64,000 nucleotides of DNA from the sequence record OK335775.1. One strand, written 5' to 3'. The notes below the pieces were generated by a model. That model was not told the DNA's origin. It did not search any database and saw only the letters and a list, made by a program, of their open reading frames with translations. Shown here one piece after another: positions 15,101 to 63,891 of the stretch. Each line of letters begins with the position of its first letter. Within the stretch, counting starts at the first letter, position 1. The stretch is from Escherichia phage PSD2002. Both the position numbers and the translations under genes were made by a program.

Positions 15101-15112
15101 TATTTATAAATA
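15101..15112. promoter_or_regulatory. bidirectional late promoter: palindrome TATTTATAAATA gives TATAAATA on both strands
   Basis: TATAAATA at 15105-15112 on + (gp26 ATG 15131) and on the reverse strand at 15101-15108 (gp51 ATG 15080). Confidence 0.6.
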
Positions 15113-19419: not shown

Positions 19420-19441
19420 TATAAATATAGTTATATTTATA
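19420..19441. promoter_or_regulatory. divergent late promoters (TATAAATA on + for inh/hoc; TATAAATA on the reverse strand for uvsW)
   Basis: TATAAATA at 19420-19427 (+) and complement of TATTTATA at 19434-19441. Confidence 0.55.
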
Positions 19442-28923: not shown

Positions 28924-29189
28924 TATTCATCGTCCTCGTCTTTGCCATCATCACCTTCGTCCGCATCGTCAGATTCTTTTTTGTCTTTCTTATCTGCTTT
29001 ATCGGATTTTTTGTCATCTTCGTCTTCGTCATCTTCGTCGGCTTCTTCGCCTTCAATCATAACGGAGCGAGCAATTTCTGCTTTACGGGCTTCAATCAAA
29101 GCGGCTACTCGAGATTCGATAAGCGGGGCTGCTGCTTTACGAACTGCTACGAGGTCGTTTGATTTAATAGCTTCGATTAAATCTTCCAT
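28923..29189 (-). CDS. 67: prohead core protein gp67
   Basis: 88 aa; highly acidic C-terminus; synteny. Confidence 0.6.
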
Positions 29190-30763
29190 TAGAAATCCTC
29201 TTCTTCTTCATCTGGGTTTTGGAAACGAGCCTCTTTAGACTCTTCTTCAATTTGCTTAGCTTCTTGATTAATTTCTTCGTCAGTCATCTGGAGGAAATCT
29301 TTCATAGCCGTTTGATGTGAAATGTACTTACCAATAAATGGTTCGGCCATCGTTAGCATATTGATTCTGCGTTCCATGATTTCAGCATCTTTCATTTCAC
29401 TGAAATAGCTATCACGGTTAAATGTAACTTTAATATTATTTATTTCCTTTTCCCACTCATCTTCTGTAATAATCTTTTTAAGAATGAGGTTTGTTTTTAA
29501 CGGGTCTAGGAAAATTTCTTCAAATTTGTTTTGTAACTGACGAATCCATTTAGCAAATTTCAACTCATCACGAGTGATTGCTGTACCGGCATCAAACATA
29601 ACGCCTGAATTAGATTCACTAGGGATACGTGATTCTGGAATACGCAGTGCACGGTAAAGTGCTGTGCGGAAATAAAGAACGTCATCCATATCACTCATAC
29701 CAGTAGCACCTGGCATTGTATCAACTTCTGTTACCGCTTTACCGTCACGACGTTGCAACCAATAGTCTTCAGTCATGGACATATTGTGTTGTTGGTTTTT
29801 AATTTTACCTGTCGAAGCATCATACACCACACGGTTTTTCATCGTGTTCATGATATGTTGCATTTGTGCTGCAGCCTTACGTGAAGGCATATTACCTGTA
29901 TCGATATAAAACACACGACGGTCAGGAGCACGTGTAATACGGTAGATGACCATTGCGTCTTCCATCAATTTAAGCTGGTTTGCAGGCTTAATAGCACGTT
30001 GCAAATAGCCAATGATGTTTTTACCACAACAATCTAATAATCCTGAATGGGCATAAACCACAGCAGCACGAGGAATTTTAACTTTAGTCCCTGCTGAATA
30101 AATGCGTCCATCTGCGCAATAGCTTTCATGGCCTGTATCATAAACGAAAAACTCGCGATATCCGTCTACAACTTTAACACCATCTTCCATACGTGTAACG
30201 ATTTCACGAATATATTGGACTTGGCGTGGGTCTAAGCGACGAAGCTCTTGTACGCCATCTTTCATTTTTTTAGGGTTTATAATTTTATGAAAGAAAATTC
30301 TTGAGTCTACATACCAGCGTTGGAAATGGTCAGTGCCTTTACGTTGGAAATTTAAAAGGTTTAAAACGTCACTGAATTCGGCCAAGATTTTATCTTTAAT
30401 TGCTTGACTAAATTCTGTCCCGTCTAAATTCAATGCAACTACTTCTTTATCATCCTCGTAGACAATAGCGTCAGACACAATTTCCTGTACGGCGTTGTCG
30501 ACTTCATAGTTGTTCATTAAATTACGGTAGGTATCAATAAGTTCCCTGGTATTTTTAACTTCAGGCTCATTACTACCAAACATCTGTTGCATAAGAGCAT
30601 TATAAGGAATATTTTGCTCTTGTGTCTCAATTTCGCGAGCGCCATCATCAAGCTTAGGTGCGGTGACAGACTCTAAATTGTTATTAATTTGTTGTTTATA
30701 TTCTTTTTCGTCTTCATTAGCCCATGGCTTAAGAAAACTTAATATTGTATTAAAGTTTGCCAT
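29189..30763 (-). CDS. 20: portal vertex protein gp20
   Basis: 524 aa (T4 gp20 524 aa); synteny. Confidence 0.85.
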
Positions 30764-30820
30764 TAGAGTCTCCGATGAATGGGATAAGGAGCCGAAGCTC
30801 CTTGATAATTCTATTTATAC

Positions 30821-31312
30821 TCATTCCCACCAATCGATAGCGAACGTAGATTCGAAAGTTTCTACCTCGTTGTTTGAATCCCAATCCATCTGGACTTCAC
30901 CAACGTTAGTAGGCCATAAGCCGTAAATTGTAACTTCTTTGGTCACAGTCTTGCCGTCACGATGGAACTGGCGAACTACTGCTTGTTTCTTATATTCTGC
31001 AGGTGCTGCACCGGTAATTTCATTGGTCATACCATGACAGAGATTCTGCCAATCAACAATTGCCTGACGGGTGTCATGTGCATCATCGTTATAAATGGTA
31101 ATTGTCCAATCATCAAACGTACGGTCACCAGCTACGTTAATTTTACGGTTCATGTAGCCAACCGGTACTTTTTCTACAATGCCTGCCGGCATAGGTGCTG
31201 CTTTACATTTAAAGCTAAAGTTTTTACCAAGAAATGGAATTTCCACTTCGAAAAGGTTAGGGCGTGCAAAGTCACCAGATTCAAAAGCCCTAGTGATATC
31301 GGTAAGTTCCAT
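30821..31312 (-). CDS. 19: tail tube protein gp19
   Basis: 163 aa (T4 gp19 163 aa); synteny. Confidence 0.85.
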   Translation of the reverse strand: MELTDITRAFESGDFARPNLFEVEIPFLGKNFSFKCKAAPMPAGIVEKVPVGYMNRKINVAGDRTFDDWTITIYNDDAHDTRQAIVDWQNLCHGMTNEITGAAPAEYKKQAVVRQFHRDGKTVTKEVTIYGLWPTNVGEVQMDWDSNNEVETFESTFAIDWWE

Positions 31313-31497
31313 GGGATGCCTCTTAAGTCAGTTCCTGGACACACCAGGAACGTTCTGATTAATTTATTTATAACAGTTGATAAATCATATTCCTAAAGAA
31401 TAATCAATCCCAGGCGCAATTCTACGTGATGTACGCTGTAACCAAACTCATGGTATAATGGTTTTAGGTTCTTTATATTACAGCCTGGGATAATAGA

Positions 31498-33480
31498 TTA
31501 TACTAAAGGTCCAATCAATTCATCAAAATCAGCACCAGTGCTCGTTGCAACGAAGTTCAACGTGATATAATTTATCGATCTCGCCGGCTTGATGTATATA
31601 TTAGCAATAAACTCGTTACGGTCAATAACCGCAGGGGTGTTCACTGTAGTATCACAAACCACACGTCCTTCATAAATCCCACCAAGTGCCTTAATACCAT
31701 CTAAATACTGAGAAACTTCCATACGGAAGCTTGAACGAGTGAAGTTGTCGTTCAATTCAAACAGCTTATATTTAGAGGCATCACCGATATTTTTCTTAAG
31801 CATGTTGAACAGACGGCGAACGTTAATGTGGTCCATCGGAGATGGAACTTTAGTTGCAGTCTTATCACCAAACAATACGAAACCATCACCACCAGCAAAA
31901 CCAACAACTGGGTTAATAGCTTCCTGGTACATGCGGTCACGTTGTGCTTGACGTGGTTCAATTGCCAATTTCAGAACGTTAAGAATCTGGCCACGGTTAT
32001 AACCTGCCGGAGACATCCAAGGCTGAGAAACATCATCAGTACGTGCACACAAACCAGCCATATCAGCGGCCAGAGGCACCCAACGGTTTACGTCATTATA
32101 TTTGTCATACTGATATTTATAGTTACCGTCAATAGCAGCATAAGTGGTGCTAATGTTCATGTTGTTGGCATCGAAAGTACCTGCACCGGTACGCCAGTCG
32201 ATAAGGTTATCTACTGCACGAGTCAATGGAACGTTAACCAACAGACCTTTAGGAGGAGAAATAAATGCCAAGCAATCCTGACGTTCATCAGCAATGCTCA
32301 CAACATGTTTCTGGACGGTCGAAGCAACTTCGTCACCTTCACCGGCAACAGCACCTGCAATAAGAAGGTTGATGTGTAATGCTTCACGGTCGGCAAACAA
32401 ATCCCAACCCTGCATCAAATCACCTGCAGTAACCTGGTCGTTAGCAGAAACACCGCCCATCAGATTAATGATACCACTGAAGCCTTTAGGCCAGTTCAGC
32501 GAGGTAGCGAAGATATAGTTCGAAGTACCTTTAGCGAAATAGTCATCAAGATAAATGTTATTACCGTAAACGTCTTTTTCGCCTTCTTTGGTAGAAAGTA
32601 CGACGGATTCTACGATTGCACCGTCACGGCGAACAATAATAGCATATTGGTCTTCTGTTTGAGGGCCGTAGTTGAATACCGCTTTAGCAACAGAAGCACG
32701 CGTACCACCATTTGGATAAATATCCAACATTTTAGTAGAACCTGCATCATAAGCTGCTTTAGAAACAATTTCAACTTCCAGAGTACTACCAATTTCACCA
32801 GGATAAAGAGCGACCACGCCTGGCATAGCGAATTGTTTAAGGGACGCCTGGAATTCCAGAGAAGTTATCGCTTCTTGACTATTCTCTGCTTCGGTCAACA
32901 GAATACCTGAATCGGTTACAATTTTACCAACAGTAATGGTACCGGAAACACCGGAAGAGGCAGAAGTAACTTCAGCAGTCCATGCTGGTCCAAGGTCAGG
33001 ATATTGATTGATAGAACGGGCATAAGAAATAATCTTGGCCGTAGGAATAAACACCGATAGAATTTTACCGTCTGTATCAACCGAAGTTACACGCCCTTCA
33101 GATTCGACTACAGTTTGGTTATGTTTAATATTGATTTTATCGCCTACAGCATAGTTAGAACCTGCAGTAGTAATAGTGGTTTGGACGTTACCTGCTACCG
33201 GAGATGCGTTTTTAGCAAACTCACGACTAACAACACGAACTGTACGAAGGTCGTTACCGTACTGGAGGAAGTTCATACCAGACATAAAATAATCTGCTAC
33301 TTCGTTATTAGGGCCTCCAAACAAATCCACCAGTTCAACTTCGTTAGTAATTTGAGTTACCTGGAAAGCAGGGCCCCACTGGAATTTACCAACCAGCGCT
33401 GCACGACCCGTTGCGTTACGAACGACAGTACTCTGTACGGACGTTTCTTTGAGCTCAATGCCCGGTGATAATAAAGCCAT
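31498..33480 (-). CDS. 18: tail sheath protein gp18
   Basis: 660 aa (T4 gp18 659 aa); late promoter (complement of 33510-33517) upstream. Confidence 0.9.
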   Translation of the reverse strand: MALLSPGIELKETSVQSTVVRNATGRAALVGKFQWGPAFQVTQITNEVELVDLFGGPNNEVADYFMSGMNFLQYGNDLRTVRVVSREFAKNASPVAGNVQTTITTAGSNYAVGDKINIKHNQTVVESEGRVTSVDTDGKILSVFIPTAKIISYARSINQYPDLGPAWTAEVTSASSGVSGTITVGKIVTDSGILLTEAENSQEAITSLEFQASLKQFAMPGVVALYPGEIGSTLEVEIVSKAAYDAGSTKMLDIYPNGGTRASVAKAVFNYGPQTEDQYAIIVRRDGAIVESVVLSTKEGEKDVYGNNIYLDDYFAKGTSNYIFATSLNWPKGFSGIINLMGGVSANDQVTAGDLMQGWDLFADREALHINLLIAGAVAGEGDEVASTVQKHVVSIADERQDCLAFISPPKGLLVNVPLTRAVDNLIDWRTGAGTFDANNMNISTTYAAIDGNYKYQYDKYNDVNRWVPLAADMAGLCARTDDVSQPWMSPAGYNRGQILNVLKLAIEPRQAQRDRMYQEAINPVVGFAGGDGFVLFGDKTATKVPSPMDHINVRRLFNMLKKNIGDASKYKLFELNDNFTRSSFRMEVSQYLDGIKALGGIYEGRVVCDTTVNTPAVIDRNEFIANIYIKPARSINYITLNFVATSTGADFDELIGPLV

Positions 33481-49588: not shown

Positions 49589-49615
49589 TAAATCTCCTTA
49601 AACCTCCGAAGAGGC

Positions 49616-51574
49616 TTATATTGTAATTGGTTCCAACTCTATAGTTGTGTACTGAGGACGAAGGTCATCTTCAAATACGATTAAAGAACCGTCTTTGGTA
49701 AAGATGTTGTCTTGGTCTGGCCCTGCATAAAGTTCAATAGACTGGACTTCAAAACGATCGGAAGTAAGGCCTATTGCGGCGATATCCCAGAAAATAAAGT
49801 CCGAGTAATAATCAATTTCGCCAATAACATAGTAGACCGATTGGTCTGCAGGCGCTGCCATTTTATCAAAGTCATCTCCGGTGTAAGGTTGGATGTATTG
49901 GTTTTCAATTACATCGCCAGGTCGGAAAGGACCTATAACCATTTTACCATCGCCTCGTTCGTCTTTATCTGTGGCAACAATACGTACGTTGTAAGATTTA
50001 ACAACATCAGATACGTTTGTTGGGACGAACTCAAATTCACTAGAAGTTACAGAACGGTTGGTGTATTGATTATAGTATTTAATACCCGCTTCAGGTGTTT
50101 TGAAGAAGTTTAATACCTCGCGAACCATTGTTACCGTAGCCGAAGAGCCAAGGATACTGTGGTCTGCATTATCAATATAAGTCAGCATTTTAGACTTGGC
50201 AAATCCGTGGTTGAATATTTCAACTTCGTTAATATAATAACGGTCTATTTGGGAAAGGATTTGGGCCGTTAACCATTGTTCGGATTCCTGTAATTTGTTC
50301 AGTGCATATGAAACCTTAATTTTATGCTTCAAGAACAAGTAGTCAGGAGAAATAACCGAAGGGGTAATAGGTGCCAAGTTAAATTCTGAAAGATAATTTT
50401 GGATATCTTCGCGTTGAACCGCAGTCAAATACAATCCTGATTTAGGTTTAATGGTAACAAAGGCATAACCTGGTTTATTTGGGTCTGTAAAGGTTTGTAC
50501 TGCTTGTACAATAGAACCAAATCGCTCCGAAACGAATGTATCATAATCTGTACCGGTTACAGCACGCATCTGGGCTTCACGTTTAACTACAGCAAGTTCA
50601 CGAATACGTTCAATATCTTCAGGGTCACCACCACCGTCAGCACCTACATAATCCGGGTTTTCATCGTAGTTTTCTGTAATTTTTTCAACCGTAATATATG
50701 CCAAAGAATCCGCATAACTAAAGTCCACTGCCCCGTTAGCAACTTCACCATCTGTACGAAGGTATTCTATAACAATGGTAGCATCTTTAACAGGTTTTAA
50801 ACCACCAATATAATTAGCTTCTAATACCCCACCTGCAACTGATTTTTCAGCAACACCTTCACCAAAGAAGAATTCAGTATTACCATCTACGGTTTCACGC
50901 ATATAGTAAATTGTTGATGTACTACCAGCATGAACCATGGATTTATTAGTCCAGTTAGTCCATTCTGCGCCATCGACATAAAGTTTAACTTCCTGTCTAT
51001 CAATATCCGGGTCACGAATAAGAATAGGAGTTTTAGGGTCATACTTAAGTTCAGTACGGATAATACGACCTTGTGCTAAAGATACGATAGGAAGATATTG
51101 GTTATTAACATCACGTACGGCAATAACGTTTTCCGTGGTAACAAAAGAATACGGGTCTGCTGAAGTATCACGGGCATAGGCCAAGAATTTAGTACCACGT
51201 GGGATACGAATATTCTTTTCATTCAGGGCTTGGGTACAGGTCAACATGATACTTGTTTTGGCTGCTGATTTAGAACTTGGCAAATAGCCGTTATCCTGTG
51301 CAGCCTGGACGACGGAGGAACGCAAGTTAGCAGTACCGATGAAAGATTCATATACCGCGGTATTAGCAAACTGCTGCATATACAGGGTGTTGTAAGCTAA
51401 CATGTCAATCAGGATATTCATTCGCGAACCAACGAAATCGTAATCCTTAAATTCGTCCTGGCTAGAAAGCCAATCGATAATATTCTTTTTAATCTCTTCA
51501 AACGTAGCTCCCACAAATACTTTTGGGATAGCGTTAACGGTTCTTGTTAATTGGTAATTCGTAGGAGTAGCCAT
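49616..51574 (-). CDS. 6: baseplate wedge gp6
   Basis: 652 aa; N-terminal region (NYQLTRT.NAIP..FVG.TF.EIK...DYDF.GSR.N.L.D.LAYNTLY.QQF) closely resembles T4 gp6. Confidence 0.9.
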   Translation of the reverse strand: MATPTNYQLTRTVNAIPKVFVGATFEEIKKNIIDWLSSQDEFKDYDFVGSRMNILIDMLAYNTLYMQQFANTAVYESFIGTANLRSSVVQAAQDNGYLPSSKSAAKTSIMLTCTQALNEKNIRIPRGTKFLAYARDTSADPYSFVTTENVIAVRDVNNQYLPIVSLAQGRIIRTELKYDPKTPILIRDPDIDRQEVKLYVDGAEWTNWTNKSMVHAGSTSTIYYMRETVDGNTEFFFGEGVAEKSVAGGVLEANYIGGLKPVKDATIVIEYLRTDGEVANGAVDFSYADSLAYITVEKITENYDENPDYVGADGGGDPEDIERIRELAVVKREAQMRAVTGTDYDTFVSERFGSIVQAVQTFTDPNKPGYAFVTIKPKSGLYLTAVQREDIQNYLSEFNLAPITPSVISPDYLFLKHKIKVSYALNKLQESEQWLTAQILSQIDRYYINEVEIFNHGFAKSKMLTYIDNADHSILGSSATVTMVREVLNFFKTPEAGIKYYNQYTNRSVTSSEFEFVPTNVSDVVKSYNVRIVATDKDERGDGKMVIGPFRPGDVIENQYIQPYTGDDFDKMAAPADQSVYYVIGEIDYYSDFIFWDIAAIGLTSDRFEVQSIELYAGPDQDNIFTKDGSLIVFEDDLRPQYTTIELEPITI

Positions 51575-56030: not shown

Positions 56031-56075
56031 AGTGCCTCCGAGTATAAATAATATTAATATTTATAAGGAGGCACT
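56031..56075. promoter_or_regulatory. symmetric divergent late promoter region: TATAAATA on each strand flanked by 9-bp inverted repeat AGTGCCTCC/GGAGGCACT
   Basis: TATAAATA at 56043-56050 (+, gp4) and complement of 56058-56065 (gp53); the inverted repeat supplies GGAGG RBS to both genes. Confidence 0.6.
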
Positions 56076-56525: not shown

Positions 56526-57349
56526 GTATATTTTCTTACATCAACGAGGCTACTGAAACTACAAAAGGTTCCAAGCCTACTCGTTCAGAACAACAATGGA
56601 TAACTTTAGGCGTTGAATATGCCAACGCTAAGGCTAAAGGTGTTTCGGCTAAGAAATTCGCTGAAGATAAAGGCATCAAGTATTCTAGCTTTACATCTGC
56701 GATGTCTCGATACTCGAGTCGAATTAAAACTGCTGTACAGGTTGAAAAACTTCAGAAGAAACCTGGCAATAAATTAACCAAAGCCGAACGTCAATTAATT
56801 TTGGTGAATAGTTTTAGAAAGAGTATTCGCGATAAGATTGCTAACGAAGGCGCTGCCGTAAACAATAAATCAGCTAAATGGTTTACAGAAACATTAAAGA
56901 AAGGAATTCGTGGACACCAGGTATCTAAACCGTCTCCTGGTAAGCTTTATGCTTATATCTATGATGCCAAACATAAGGATACCCTACCATACTGGGACAA
57001 ATATCCTTTAATAATTTATCTTGGGTTAGGTAAGCATAATTTAATGTACGGACTGAACTTACACTATATTCCACCTAAAGCACGTCAGCAATTTCTGGAA
57101 GAATTGCTGAAGCAATACGCGAGTACGCCTACCATTACGAACTCGACTAAATTAAAAATCGATTGGAGTAAGGTAAAAGGATTCGCTGGCGCCGACGTGA
57201 TGATTAAGGCTTATATCCCTGGAAATATTAAGGGACCTTTAGTAGAGATAAAACCGTCTGATTGGGCTAATGTCGTAATGATGCCGCTCCAACAGTTCAT
57301 GTCTAAAGGCAAGCGTTATTCAGCTCAGAAAGTATGGAAGAATTCATAA
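56522..57349 (+). CDS. 2: DNA end protector gp2
   Basis: Track ORF 56513..57349 trimmed to ATG overlapping gp4 TGA (ATGA) with GGAAAGG RBS; 275 aa (T4 gp2 274 aa). Confidence 0.7.
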
Positions 57350-57431
57350 TCTATTATCCCAGCCAGTTATTGAATGGAACAGACCTAGGACCATTATACA
57401 CTGTCTGGGACTTAAGCAATATAGGAACCCT

Positions 57432-61797: not shown

Positions 61798-61874
61798 GGC
61801 CCTGTAGCTCAATGGTTAGCAGCAGTCCCCTCATAAGGGAAAGGTTACCAGTTCAAATCTGGTCCGGGTCACCA
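61798..61874 (+). tRNA. tRNA with CAU anticodon (Ile2 or Met), non-canonical D-stem
   Basis: Hand fold: acceptor GGCCCTG/CCGGGTC (one mismatch, one G-U), anticodon loop CTCATAA, T-arm ACCAG-TTCAAAT-CTGGT, encoded CCA. Confidence 0.6.
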
Positions 61875-61879
61875 ACTAT

Positions 61880-61954
61880 GTCCCGCTGGTGTAATGGATA
61901 GCATACGATCCTTCTAAGTTTGCGGTCCTGGTTCGATCCCAGGGCGGGATACCA
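61880..61954 (+). tRNA. tRNA-Arg (anticodon UCU)
   Basis: Hand fold: acceptor GTCCCGC/GCGGGAT, D-loop AATGGATA, anticodon loop CTTCTAA, T-arm CCTGG-TTCGATC-CCAGG, encoded CCA; T4 also encodes a tRNA-Arg(UCU). Confidence 0.75.
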
Positions 61955-62336: not shown

Positions 62337-62364
62337 GGCCCTTCCGAAAGGTTGGGCTTTTTTT
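62337..62364 (+). terminator. terminator GGCCCTTCCGAAAGGTTGGGC + T7 (variant of the repeated element)
   Basis: GC stem plus T-run; copy of the motif at 16963 and 62980. Confidence 0.55.
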
Positions 62365-62365
62365 G

Positions 62366-62373
62366 TATAAATA
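62366..62373 (+). promoter_or_regulatory. late promoter TATAAATA upstream of internal-protein-like gene 4
   Basis: Exact TATAAATA 26 nt before the ATG at 62400. Confidence 0.5.
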
Positions 62374-63819: not shown

Positions 63820-63855
63820 GTTTACAACCCTCAGAGGACAGGGTATAATGTCCTC
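63820..63855 (+). promoter_or_regulatory. early promoter (GTTTACA, 17-bp spacer, TATAAT) with 7-bp inverted repeat flanking the -10
   Basis: GAGGACA at 63834-63840 pairs with TGTCCTC at 63849-63855. Confidence 0.45.
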
Positions 63856-63891
63856 ATGGATTATAAATCTTAATCAACTGAAGGAAATACT

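Follow-up and report, generated by a model that had tools for sequence, protein, structure and literature searches.

At the junction between the tail tube gene (gp19) and the portal gene (gp20) of Escherichia phage PSD2002, a T4-type late promoter sequence is followed within a few nucleotides by a perfect hairpin, and both lie ahead of the portal start codon. An earlier note on this DNA had read the arrangement as a late promoter followed by a hairpin in the gp20 leader. The question raised by the locus is whether promoter and hairpin form one device that acts on the portal message or are separate elements that stand side by side. We examined it in a stretch of 64,000 nucleotides from sequence record OK335775.1, referred to as the window herein, and in the corresponding junctions of related phages.

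Organization of the gene 19/20 junction

The window belongs to a JS98-like (Dhakavirus) T4-type phage. When a 1.1-kb query spanning the locus was searched by megablast, the 30 best matches listed, including JS98, IME08, WG01, and VR5, were 94.5 to 98% identical, and the matching records annotate the locus as tail sheath, tail tube, and portal. The late structural genes of the window are on the minus strand, as are all of the following features, which are given in the direction of transcription.

31498-33480, minus strand: gp18 (ORF list)
31365..31372, minus strand: late promoter P19, TATAAATA (sequence; predicted +1 at A31359)
31331..31351, minus strand: gp19 leader hairpin, GUUCCUGG-UGUGU-CCAGGAAC, 8 bp (sequence; fold dG -13.6)
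30821..31312, minus strand: gp19 tail tube gene, 163 aa (ORF list; JS98-like annotation; 72% identity to T4 gp19)
30823-30821, minus strand: gp19 stop codon TGA, followed by a single G and then TATAAATA (sequence)
30812..30819, minus strand: late promoter P20, TATAAATA (exact consensus; taken as -13 to -6; predicted +1 at A30806)
30811-30804, minus strand: 8-nt spacer from the P20 box to the hairpin, GAATTATC (sequence)
30786..30803, minus strand: hairpin AAGGAGC-UUCG-GCUCCUU, 7 bp (sequence, fold, covariation, positional homologues)
30803-30797, 30796-30793, and 30792-30786, minus strand: the stem AAGGAGC, loop TTCG, and stem GCTCCTT of this hairpin
30764..30785, minus strand: remaining 22 nt of the gp20 leader, with the Shine-Dalgarno GGAG at about 30772-30769 (sequence)
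29189..30763, minus strand: gp20 portal gene, 524 aa (ORF list; annotation of the matching records; 76% identity to T4 gp20)

The earlier note had placed the promoter box at 30819-30812, where it adjoins the gp19 stop codon, and the perfect 7-bp hairpin at 30803-30786, 8 nt past the box, and its coordinates and pairing hold. Its estimate of about 20 nt from the hairpin to the gp20 ATG is 22 nt by count, and what it called a promoter is a perfect T4-type late promoter sequence in the right place. The loop needs correction, as the CGAA that had been reported is the plus-strand reading and the loop in the sense of the transcript is UUCG. The same layout had been reported before gp19 and was recovered there: the P19 box (31372-31365) is followed by a 13-nt gap, an 8-bp hairpin (31351-31331) with the stem GTTCCTGG/CCAGGAAC and a 5-nt loop, and the ATG at 31312.

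Downstream of the 19/20 hairpin, GGAG lies about 7 nt 5′ of the gp20 ATG (30763), and CGGAGACTCTAATG in the gp20 leader is kept across relatives. Folding of the leader remainder (30764-30785) gave only a weak 3-bp helix, and this segment is otherwise unstructured. The hairpin leaves the gene 20 Shine-Dalgarno free, with the Shine-Dalgarno and the ATG 14 to 22 nt downstream of the stem. An Rfam scan of the whole window returned no match at the 19/20 locus; its only matches were two adjacent tRNA genes (61798-61951, plus strand).

Late promoters and their predicted transcripts

The late promoter sequence TATAAATA occurs 18 times in the window against 6.96 expected, a count that none of 100 shuffles reached. 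Thirteen of the 18 sites fall in non-coding DNA, which makes up about 9% of the window, and these are correctly oriented and each 18 to 52 nt upstream of a gene start. The P20 box is an exact 8-bp match to the gp55-type late promoter, 48 nt upstream of the portal ATG and with the A/T-rich GAATTAT directly after it. TATAAATA is kept at the P20 position in JS98-like phages, Edwardsiella phage PEi20, Escherichia phage VR20, and the surveyed locus L013.

In T4, the late promoter box occupies -13 to -6, and A is tolerated at -13 (PMC1524935, PMC2988020). Since we took the box as -13 to -6 (PMC1524935), the P20 start site is predicted at A30806. The P20 transcript would then begin with AUC and run directly into the hairpin (+4 to +21), with 3 unpaired nucleotides at its 5′ end, a leader of 43 nt, and the ATG at +44. 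The P19 transcript, counted in the same way, would have 8 unpaired 5′ nucleotides ahead of a hairpin at +9 to +29. Our literature search found no mapped 5′ or 3′ transcript ends for JS98-like phages; for T4, a dRNA-seq data set exists. The NCBI record of T4 (NC_000866) annotates no promoter or terminator features in the gene 19/20 region.

The P19 and P20 leaders are clear structural outliers. Over the first 30 nt of the leader, dG was -10.8 for P20 and -13.6 for P19, compared to 0 to -6.6 at the other 16 TATAAATA sites of the window and 0 to -4.7 at 14 TATAAATA sites in the 40-kb homologous region of T4. The other 11 intergenic late promoters of the window have only short leaders, 18 to 33 nt in length.

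The hairpin is selected as a sense-strand RNA structure

The 19/20 hairpin folded with a dG of -10.8 kcal/mol (z = -3.66), and none of 200 shuffles was as stable. It lies 17 nt after the gp19 stop and is a C(UUCG)G tetraloop hairpin on the minus (sense) strand, with GC-UUCG-GC inside a perfect 7-bp stem. The hyperstable C(UUCG)G tetraloop was originally reported from T4 mRNA (Tuerk et al. 1988, summarized in PMC4371310). The window holds 11 UUCG-loop stems of at least 5 bp, compared to 4 in shuffles, and CTTCGG occurs 39 times against 19 expected; five UUCG hairpins are intergenic. Other UUCG hairpins at gene ends carry a T-run (at 2364, 25397, and 38471) or lack one (at 49599). The last of these, an 8-bp hairpin TAAGCCTC-TTCG-GAGGTTTA at 49599-49618 on the minus strand, overlaps the stop of the upstream baseplate gene and directly adjoins the AGGAG of the gene that follows; having neither promoter nor T-run, it is a further non-terminator intercistronic UUCG hairpin.

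For a count of covariation, we aligned nine homologous hairpins, which had been picked as the hairpin of each spacer and are mutually related. In this alignment, all 63 of 63 cells were paired, and six of the seven base pairs had changed on both sides. The covariation score of 0.774 was reached in none of 500 shuffles (0.298 in shuffles), and controls in which the register was slid were only 35 to 56% paired. Because compensatory changes keep the pairing, the hairpin is under selection. The four-nucleotide loops provide evidence that does not depend on the choice of these nine sequences, as 26 of 34 are UNCG or GNRA when read in the sense direction and 0 of 34 when read antisense. The restriction of these loops to the sense reading argues that the hairpin functions as late-strand RNA rather than as a DNA repeat.

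The hairpin stays with the end of gene 19 while the promoter moves

We surveyed 79 loci with gp19 relatives, from 100% down to 35% identity, and extracted both spacers from each. Hairpins were counted in distinct short 19/20 spacers with a gp19 identity of at least 54%, and the stem had to have 5 bp or more, including 3 or more G-C pairs. By this definition, a hairpin follows gp19 in 44 of 45 distinct 19/20 spacers and usually starts 1 to 19 nt past the stop. It is altogether absent from L022, so the hairpin is dispensable.

The position of P20 relative to the hairpin differs from group to group. The promoter precedes the hairpin, whose stem then begins at +4, in the window and its JS98-like relatives, in PEi20, in L010 and L013, and in VR20. 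It overlaps the 5′ arm of the hairpin in L018, L043-L050, L051, and Erwinia phage Cronus, so that a transcript from this promoter would lack the stem; in L043-L050 only about 3 bp of it would be retained. It follows the hairpin in T4 and in L021, L024, L029-L034, L036, L038-L040, and L042, whereas in L028, L035, L037, and L041 TATAAATA lies within the loop of a long hairpin. Finally, L060-L068 have a hairpin but no recognizable promoter.

A comparison with T4 at this junction had been suggested as a check, and its outcome goes against a promoter/leader unit, since the T4 order is reversed. In the T4 19/20 spacer (NC_000866, 101124-101206), the gp19 stop is followed by ATGGGGA-GAAA-TCCCCAT, a small second hairpin, TATAAATA, and a 30-nt gp20 leader that is unstructured. 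In the T4 18/19 spacer there are two TATAAATA boxes with a hairpin ahead of each. Serratia phage CHI14, whose gp19 is 96% identical, carries the homologous hairpin ATGGAGC-UUCG-GCUCCAU directly after gp19 and upstream of P20; it has a UUUU run behind it (AGTTTTG) and is followed by a second large hairpin, TATAAATA, and a small new hairpin at +4. EcS1 likewise keeps the upstream hairpin and adds another, small one at +4 of P20. As for the hairpin in the gp19 leader, a homologue is found in L033 and L071, and L015 and L017 have an unrelated stem in the same place.

Taken together, the hairpin remains at the end of gene 19 while the promoter varies in position, which indicates that the conserved unit is a hairpin after gene 19 and not a promoter with its hairpin. 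This in turn favors a function for the hairpin on the 3′ side of the sheath/tube mRNA. The proposal of the earlier note thus stood in part. The hairpin is real, is selected, and lies in the predicted gp20 leader, but across 45 distinct spacers it goes with the end of gene 19 rather than with the promoter. For annotation, the lesson is that a hairpin beside a T4-type late promoter should not be equated with a promoter-linked device unless relatives are compared.

We also observed a variant late box, AATAAATA, at the gp19 end directly before the hairpin in L009, L014, L018, L051, and L052. It is built from the last gp19 codons GAA TAA plus ATA, or from the TAA stop plus TAAATA, and this promoter-like motif overlaps the stop codon.

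Terminator-like features

T4 terminators are built from a GC stem, a loop of 4 nt, and poly(U), and NrdA and NrdB are kept in balance by a weak terminator with an efficiency of about 30% (PMC2988022). The 19/20 hairpin has the GC-rich stem-loop of an intrinsic terminator, and the tail behind it, AUCCCAUU (UUAUCCCA after the 5-bp core), falls short of a U-tract. The hairpin had been judged no typical terminator for want of a T-run, and our terminator scan agreed in making no sense-strand call at it; at the gp19 leader hairpin the scan made an antisense call only, and a marginal one. With a U-tract as poor as UUAUCCCAUU directly after the stem, termination at the 19/20 hairpin may be negligible. 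Canonical junctions of a terminator and then TATAAATA are present elsewhere in the window, at 38490-38459 and about 62340-62373, as UUCG/GC hairpins with T-runs. The lack of a T-run behind the 19/20 hairpin has the appearance of a leaky design and not of an inability to build a terminator.

Insertions and the history of the junction

In L002 and L003, whose gp19 is 100% identical to that of the window, a 706-nt insertion separates gp19 from P20. This insertion has its own TATAAATA and codes for a protein of 193 aa, in which we read a GIY-YIG-like motif. L002, L003, and L013 all have a homing-endonuclease gene after gp19 and no hairpin directly behind gp19; the hairpin is found beside P20 and gene 20 instead. 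The gp19 end and promoter of the window, GAATGAG-TATAAATA, have an identical counterpart in L002, made up of the final bases of the inserted gene and the promoter, and the 3′ end of the window gp19 differs from the insertion-bearing relatives at synonymous sites, as would be expected for co-conversion tracts. From the shared junction and these synonymous differences, the comparison suggests that gain or loss of the endonuclease gene reshaped the 19/20 junction, a possible route to the flipped order.

Both spacers that flank gp19 are hot spots for insertions of 650 to 900 nt in relatives, and the window carries neither. Insertions were observed in the 19/20 spacer of L002, L003, L011, L013, and L022 and in the 18/19 spacer of L002, L003, L009, L016, L024, L028, and L035. 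Those in the 19/20 spacer encode a protein of 191 to 205 aa with a motif read as GIY-YIG-like and have their own late promoter upstream.

Proposed explanation: two elements in an unusual order

We favor, with a probability of roughly 0.55, the explanation that two separate known elements stand here in an unusual order, namely the late promoter P20 and a post-gene-19 intercistronic tetraloop hairpin that would serve the 3′ end of the sheath/tube message. A gp55-type late promoter for the portal gene would be set directly against the gp19 stop codon, and the hairpin would work as sense-strand RNA in transcripts arriving from the sheath and tube promoters. Immediately behind gene 19 it would most likely create or shield a 3′ end, by terminating transcription weakly and leakily, by stopping 3′-to-5′ exonucleases once the RNA has been cut downstream, or by both. 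The sheath/tube message could thereby outlast or outnumber the portal message. In the T4 structure, the sheath and tube proteins are present in about 138 copies and the portal protein in 12, and a mobile portal promoter around a near-universal hairpin fits a simple setting of the sheath/tube:portal mRNA ratio. In the window lineage, where P20 is upstream of the hairpin, portal transcripts would also start with the hairpin. Its presence in the portal leader is probably tolerated because the gene 20 ribosome-binding site is left free, and any stabilizing or attenuating effect on portal mRNA would be secondary. REP-type 3′ stabilizers are a related case. Intercistronic stem-loops of Escherichia coli protect the upstream mRNA from 3′ exonucleases and stabilize the upstream cistron in proportion to dG (PMC10667835); together with the weak T4 terminator that balances NrdA and NrdB (PMC2988022), they provide precedents for a mechanism of this class.

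Against this explanation stand the poor U-tract, the loss of the hairpin from L022, and the insertion-bearing L002, L003, and L013, where no hairpin directly follows gp19. Some further observations hint at a leader-specific role in this clade, namely the extra +4 hairpins of CHI14 and EcS1 and the presence of a gp19 leader hairpin beyond the separate structure that follows gp18; in the window, this hairpin lies downstream of that 100-nt structure. A tentative alternative, which we consider possible but rather unlikely, is that the 5′-proximal stem-loop prolongs the life of portal and tube late mRNA or tunes their translation, for example by limiting 5′-end-dependent attack by RppH and RNase E. 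P19 and P20 have the only structured leaders among the 18 TATAAATA sites of the window, compared to 0 of 14 in T4; the stem starts at +4 in five lineages with different stem sequences (the window, PEi20, L010, L013, and VR20), and CHI14 and EcS1 carry their small +4 hairpin in addition. This alternative also draws on the gp19 leader hairpin being separate from the 100-nt gp18-following structure (z = -3.5), on the genomes with endonuclease insertions, which keep promoter and hairpin together beside gene 20, and on reports that 5′ stem-loops can stabilize E. coli mRNAs (Emory 1992, Bouvet 1992, and Arnold 1998, cited in PMC3997798). However, 2 unpaired 5′ nucleotides are sufficient for RppH and RNase E, which prefer at least 3 (PMC8833179). 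With 3 (P20) and 8 (P19) unpaired nucleotides predicted, protection of either 5′ end by its hairpin is doubtful. A role as an obstacle to RNase E scanning is likewise weakened, as a simple stem-loop is a negligible obstacle and protects negligibly (PMC11194081). In addition, T4 and most relatives have no leader hairpin, and the promoter of L043-L051 intrudes on the stem. Common descent can account for the constant +4, since the spacer GAATTATC is homologous across the lineages and the stems differ by substitutions and not by indels. We regard as unlikely the more specific proposal that the Dhakavirus-Kanagawavirus-Gaprivervirus group, and not T4, has dedicated 5′-proximal stem-loops on its tube and portal late mRNAs, placed at a fixed distance (+4 for gene 20) and acting on the promoter's own transcript. 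If true, such stem-loops might lengthen transcript life against host or defense RNases, or, through a nascent hairpin at the beta-flap and RNA exit channel, the location of gp33, aid the late polymerase in leaving the promoter. A function in the leader would then amount to a previously undescribed, lineage-specific layer of late-gene control in T4-type phages.

The hairpin could instead be a weak intrinsic terminator that halts a fraction of all polymerases, including those freshly started at P20, and so keeps portal expression low. We consider this improbable, although the GC-rich stem and 4-nt loop are as in T4 terminators and a weak T4 terminator that sets stoichiometry provides a precedent (PMC2988022). 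U-tracts behind the homologous stem are better in L010 (UUUUCCC), PEi20 (UUUCCC), and CHI14 (AUAGUUUUG), but the tail in the window is UUAUCCC, with nothing called on the sense strand by the terminator scan, and CCUGCUU stands behind the homologous stem of T4; it would also be wasteful to set a promoter immediately before a terminator. Still less probable, to the point of being very unlikely, is a DNA-level origin without an RNA function of its own, either as a late analogue of promoter-stem-loop recombination cassettes or as the footprint of a homing endonuclease. The 18/19 and 19/20 spacers are indeed insertion hot spots in relatives, GAATGAG-TATAAATA is common to the window junction and the 3′ end of the gene inserted in L002, and PeSL cassettes, which mediate shuffling, join a promoter and a stem-loop whose relative positions vary (PMC2839356). 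Yet the pairing is preserved by compensatory changes, RNA-stable UNCG/GNRA loops occur in the sense reading only (26/34 vs 0/34), hairpins are also present in lineages with no insertions, and the shared sequence amounts to only about 15 nt.

Further candidate functions were rejected. A decoy or standby Shine-Dalgarno in the 5′ arm (AAGGAG) has no start codon in range, and the VR20 arm, ATGAGGC, has no GGAG. As a target of RegB, which would be GGAG, the hairpin is unsuitable in that GGAG is not universal among the hairpins and RegB has no effect on late mRNA (PMC3014915). Translational masking of the gene e or I-TevI type was dismissed because the stem does not contain the ribosome-binding site and lies entirely downstream of the predicted start.

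Comparison with known systems

In T4-type phages, late promoters as well as C(UUCG)G hairpins between cistrons have been on record since the 1980s. What the comparison adds is modest and descriptive, namely that the promoter comes first in the JS98 group and that a hairpin after gene 19 is near-universal, and the arrangement is a minor variant. Like the C(UUCG)G hairpins and terminators of T4 (PMC2988022, PMC4371310), the window hairpin has a GC-rich stem and a C-G-closed UUCG loop and is intergenic and sense. Unlike T4-type intrinsic terminators, it is without poly(U) and lies downstream rather than upstream of a promoter. The 19/20 junction of T4 joins the same gene pair and likewise has one stable 7-bp tetraloop hairpin and one TATAAATA; it differs in that the order is reversed and the stems are unrelated (ATGGGGA-GAAA-UCCCCAU in T4).

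Stem-loops that serve selective RNA processing and stabilization in E. coli operons resemble the window hairpin in being stable and in standing between high-copy upstream and low-copy downstream cistrons (PMC10667835). In the window, unlike in these operons, a promoter lies between the upstream gene and the stem-loop. The stabilizing stem-loops at the 5′ termini of ompA and papA (PMC3997798) share with the window a stem-loop very near the predicted 5′ end, but a stem-loop of the ompA type would leave fewer than about 2 unpaired 5′ nucleotides and so keep RppH and RNase E from engaging, whereas the predicted 3 (P20) and 8 (P19) would be enough for both enzymes (PMC8833179).

A late promoter together with a hairpin is also found at T4 gene e and I-TevI (PMC3014915, PMC2988022), and in this respect L028, L035, L037, and L041, with TATAAATA in the loop, are similar. 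In contrast to gene e and I-TevI, the window hairpin is wholly downstream of the predicted start and does not contain a ribosome-binding site, and an early-off/late-on translational switch is therefore inapplicable.

A further resemblance in composition is to the PeSL cassettes of RB49 and phi1 (PMC2839356), in which an intergenic promoter and a stem-loop stand in variable relative position at indel hot spots and the stem-loop has been proposed as a terminator or attenuator for upstream transcription. PeSLs differ from the 19/20 element in having sigma-70-type early promoters, hyperplastic early regions, and about 100 bp of similarity (PMC2839356), and the 19/20 element differs from PeSLs in its late TATAAATA, its core structural genes, and the lack of a long shared cassette. 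No sigma-70-like site overlapping 30780-30830 was found on the minus strand. As PeSL promoters are of the sigma-70-type early class, the window element, judged by its sequence, is not a member of the PeSL family. Relatives with the promoter ahead of the hairpin, behind it, within it, or missing make up a natural set of variants for testing the effects of the hairpin on late mRNA ends and stability.

Other intergenic elements in the window

Between divergent late genes, divergent TATAAATA boxes stand back to back or overlap at 15101-15112, 19420-19441, and 56043-56065; the two boxes at 15101-15112 share 4 bp. We also found a repeated intergenic element at 31441-31501 (minus strand) and 57343-57405 (plus strand), which starts at the stop of gp18 and at that of the gene ending at 57349, respectively. 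The copies follow the pattern ATAATCTATTATCCCAG...ACCTA..ACCATTATAC, with about 75% identity over about 60 nt, and the copy in the 18/19 spacer lies inside the 100-nt structure (dG -27.6, z -3.5). A hairpin with a CATTATACCCTG loop occurs as well at about 63832-63858 on the minus strand, and the 18/19 spacers of L030/L031 and L015/L017 carry the CATTATACCCTG loop motif on stems that differ.
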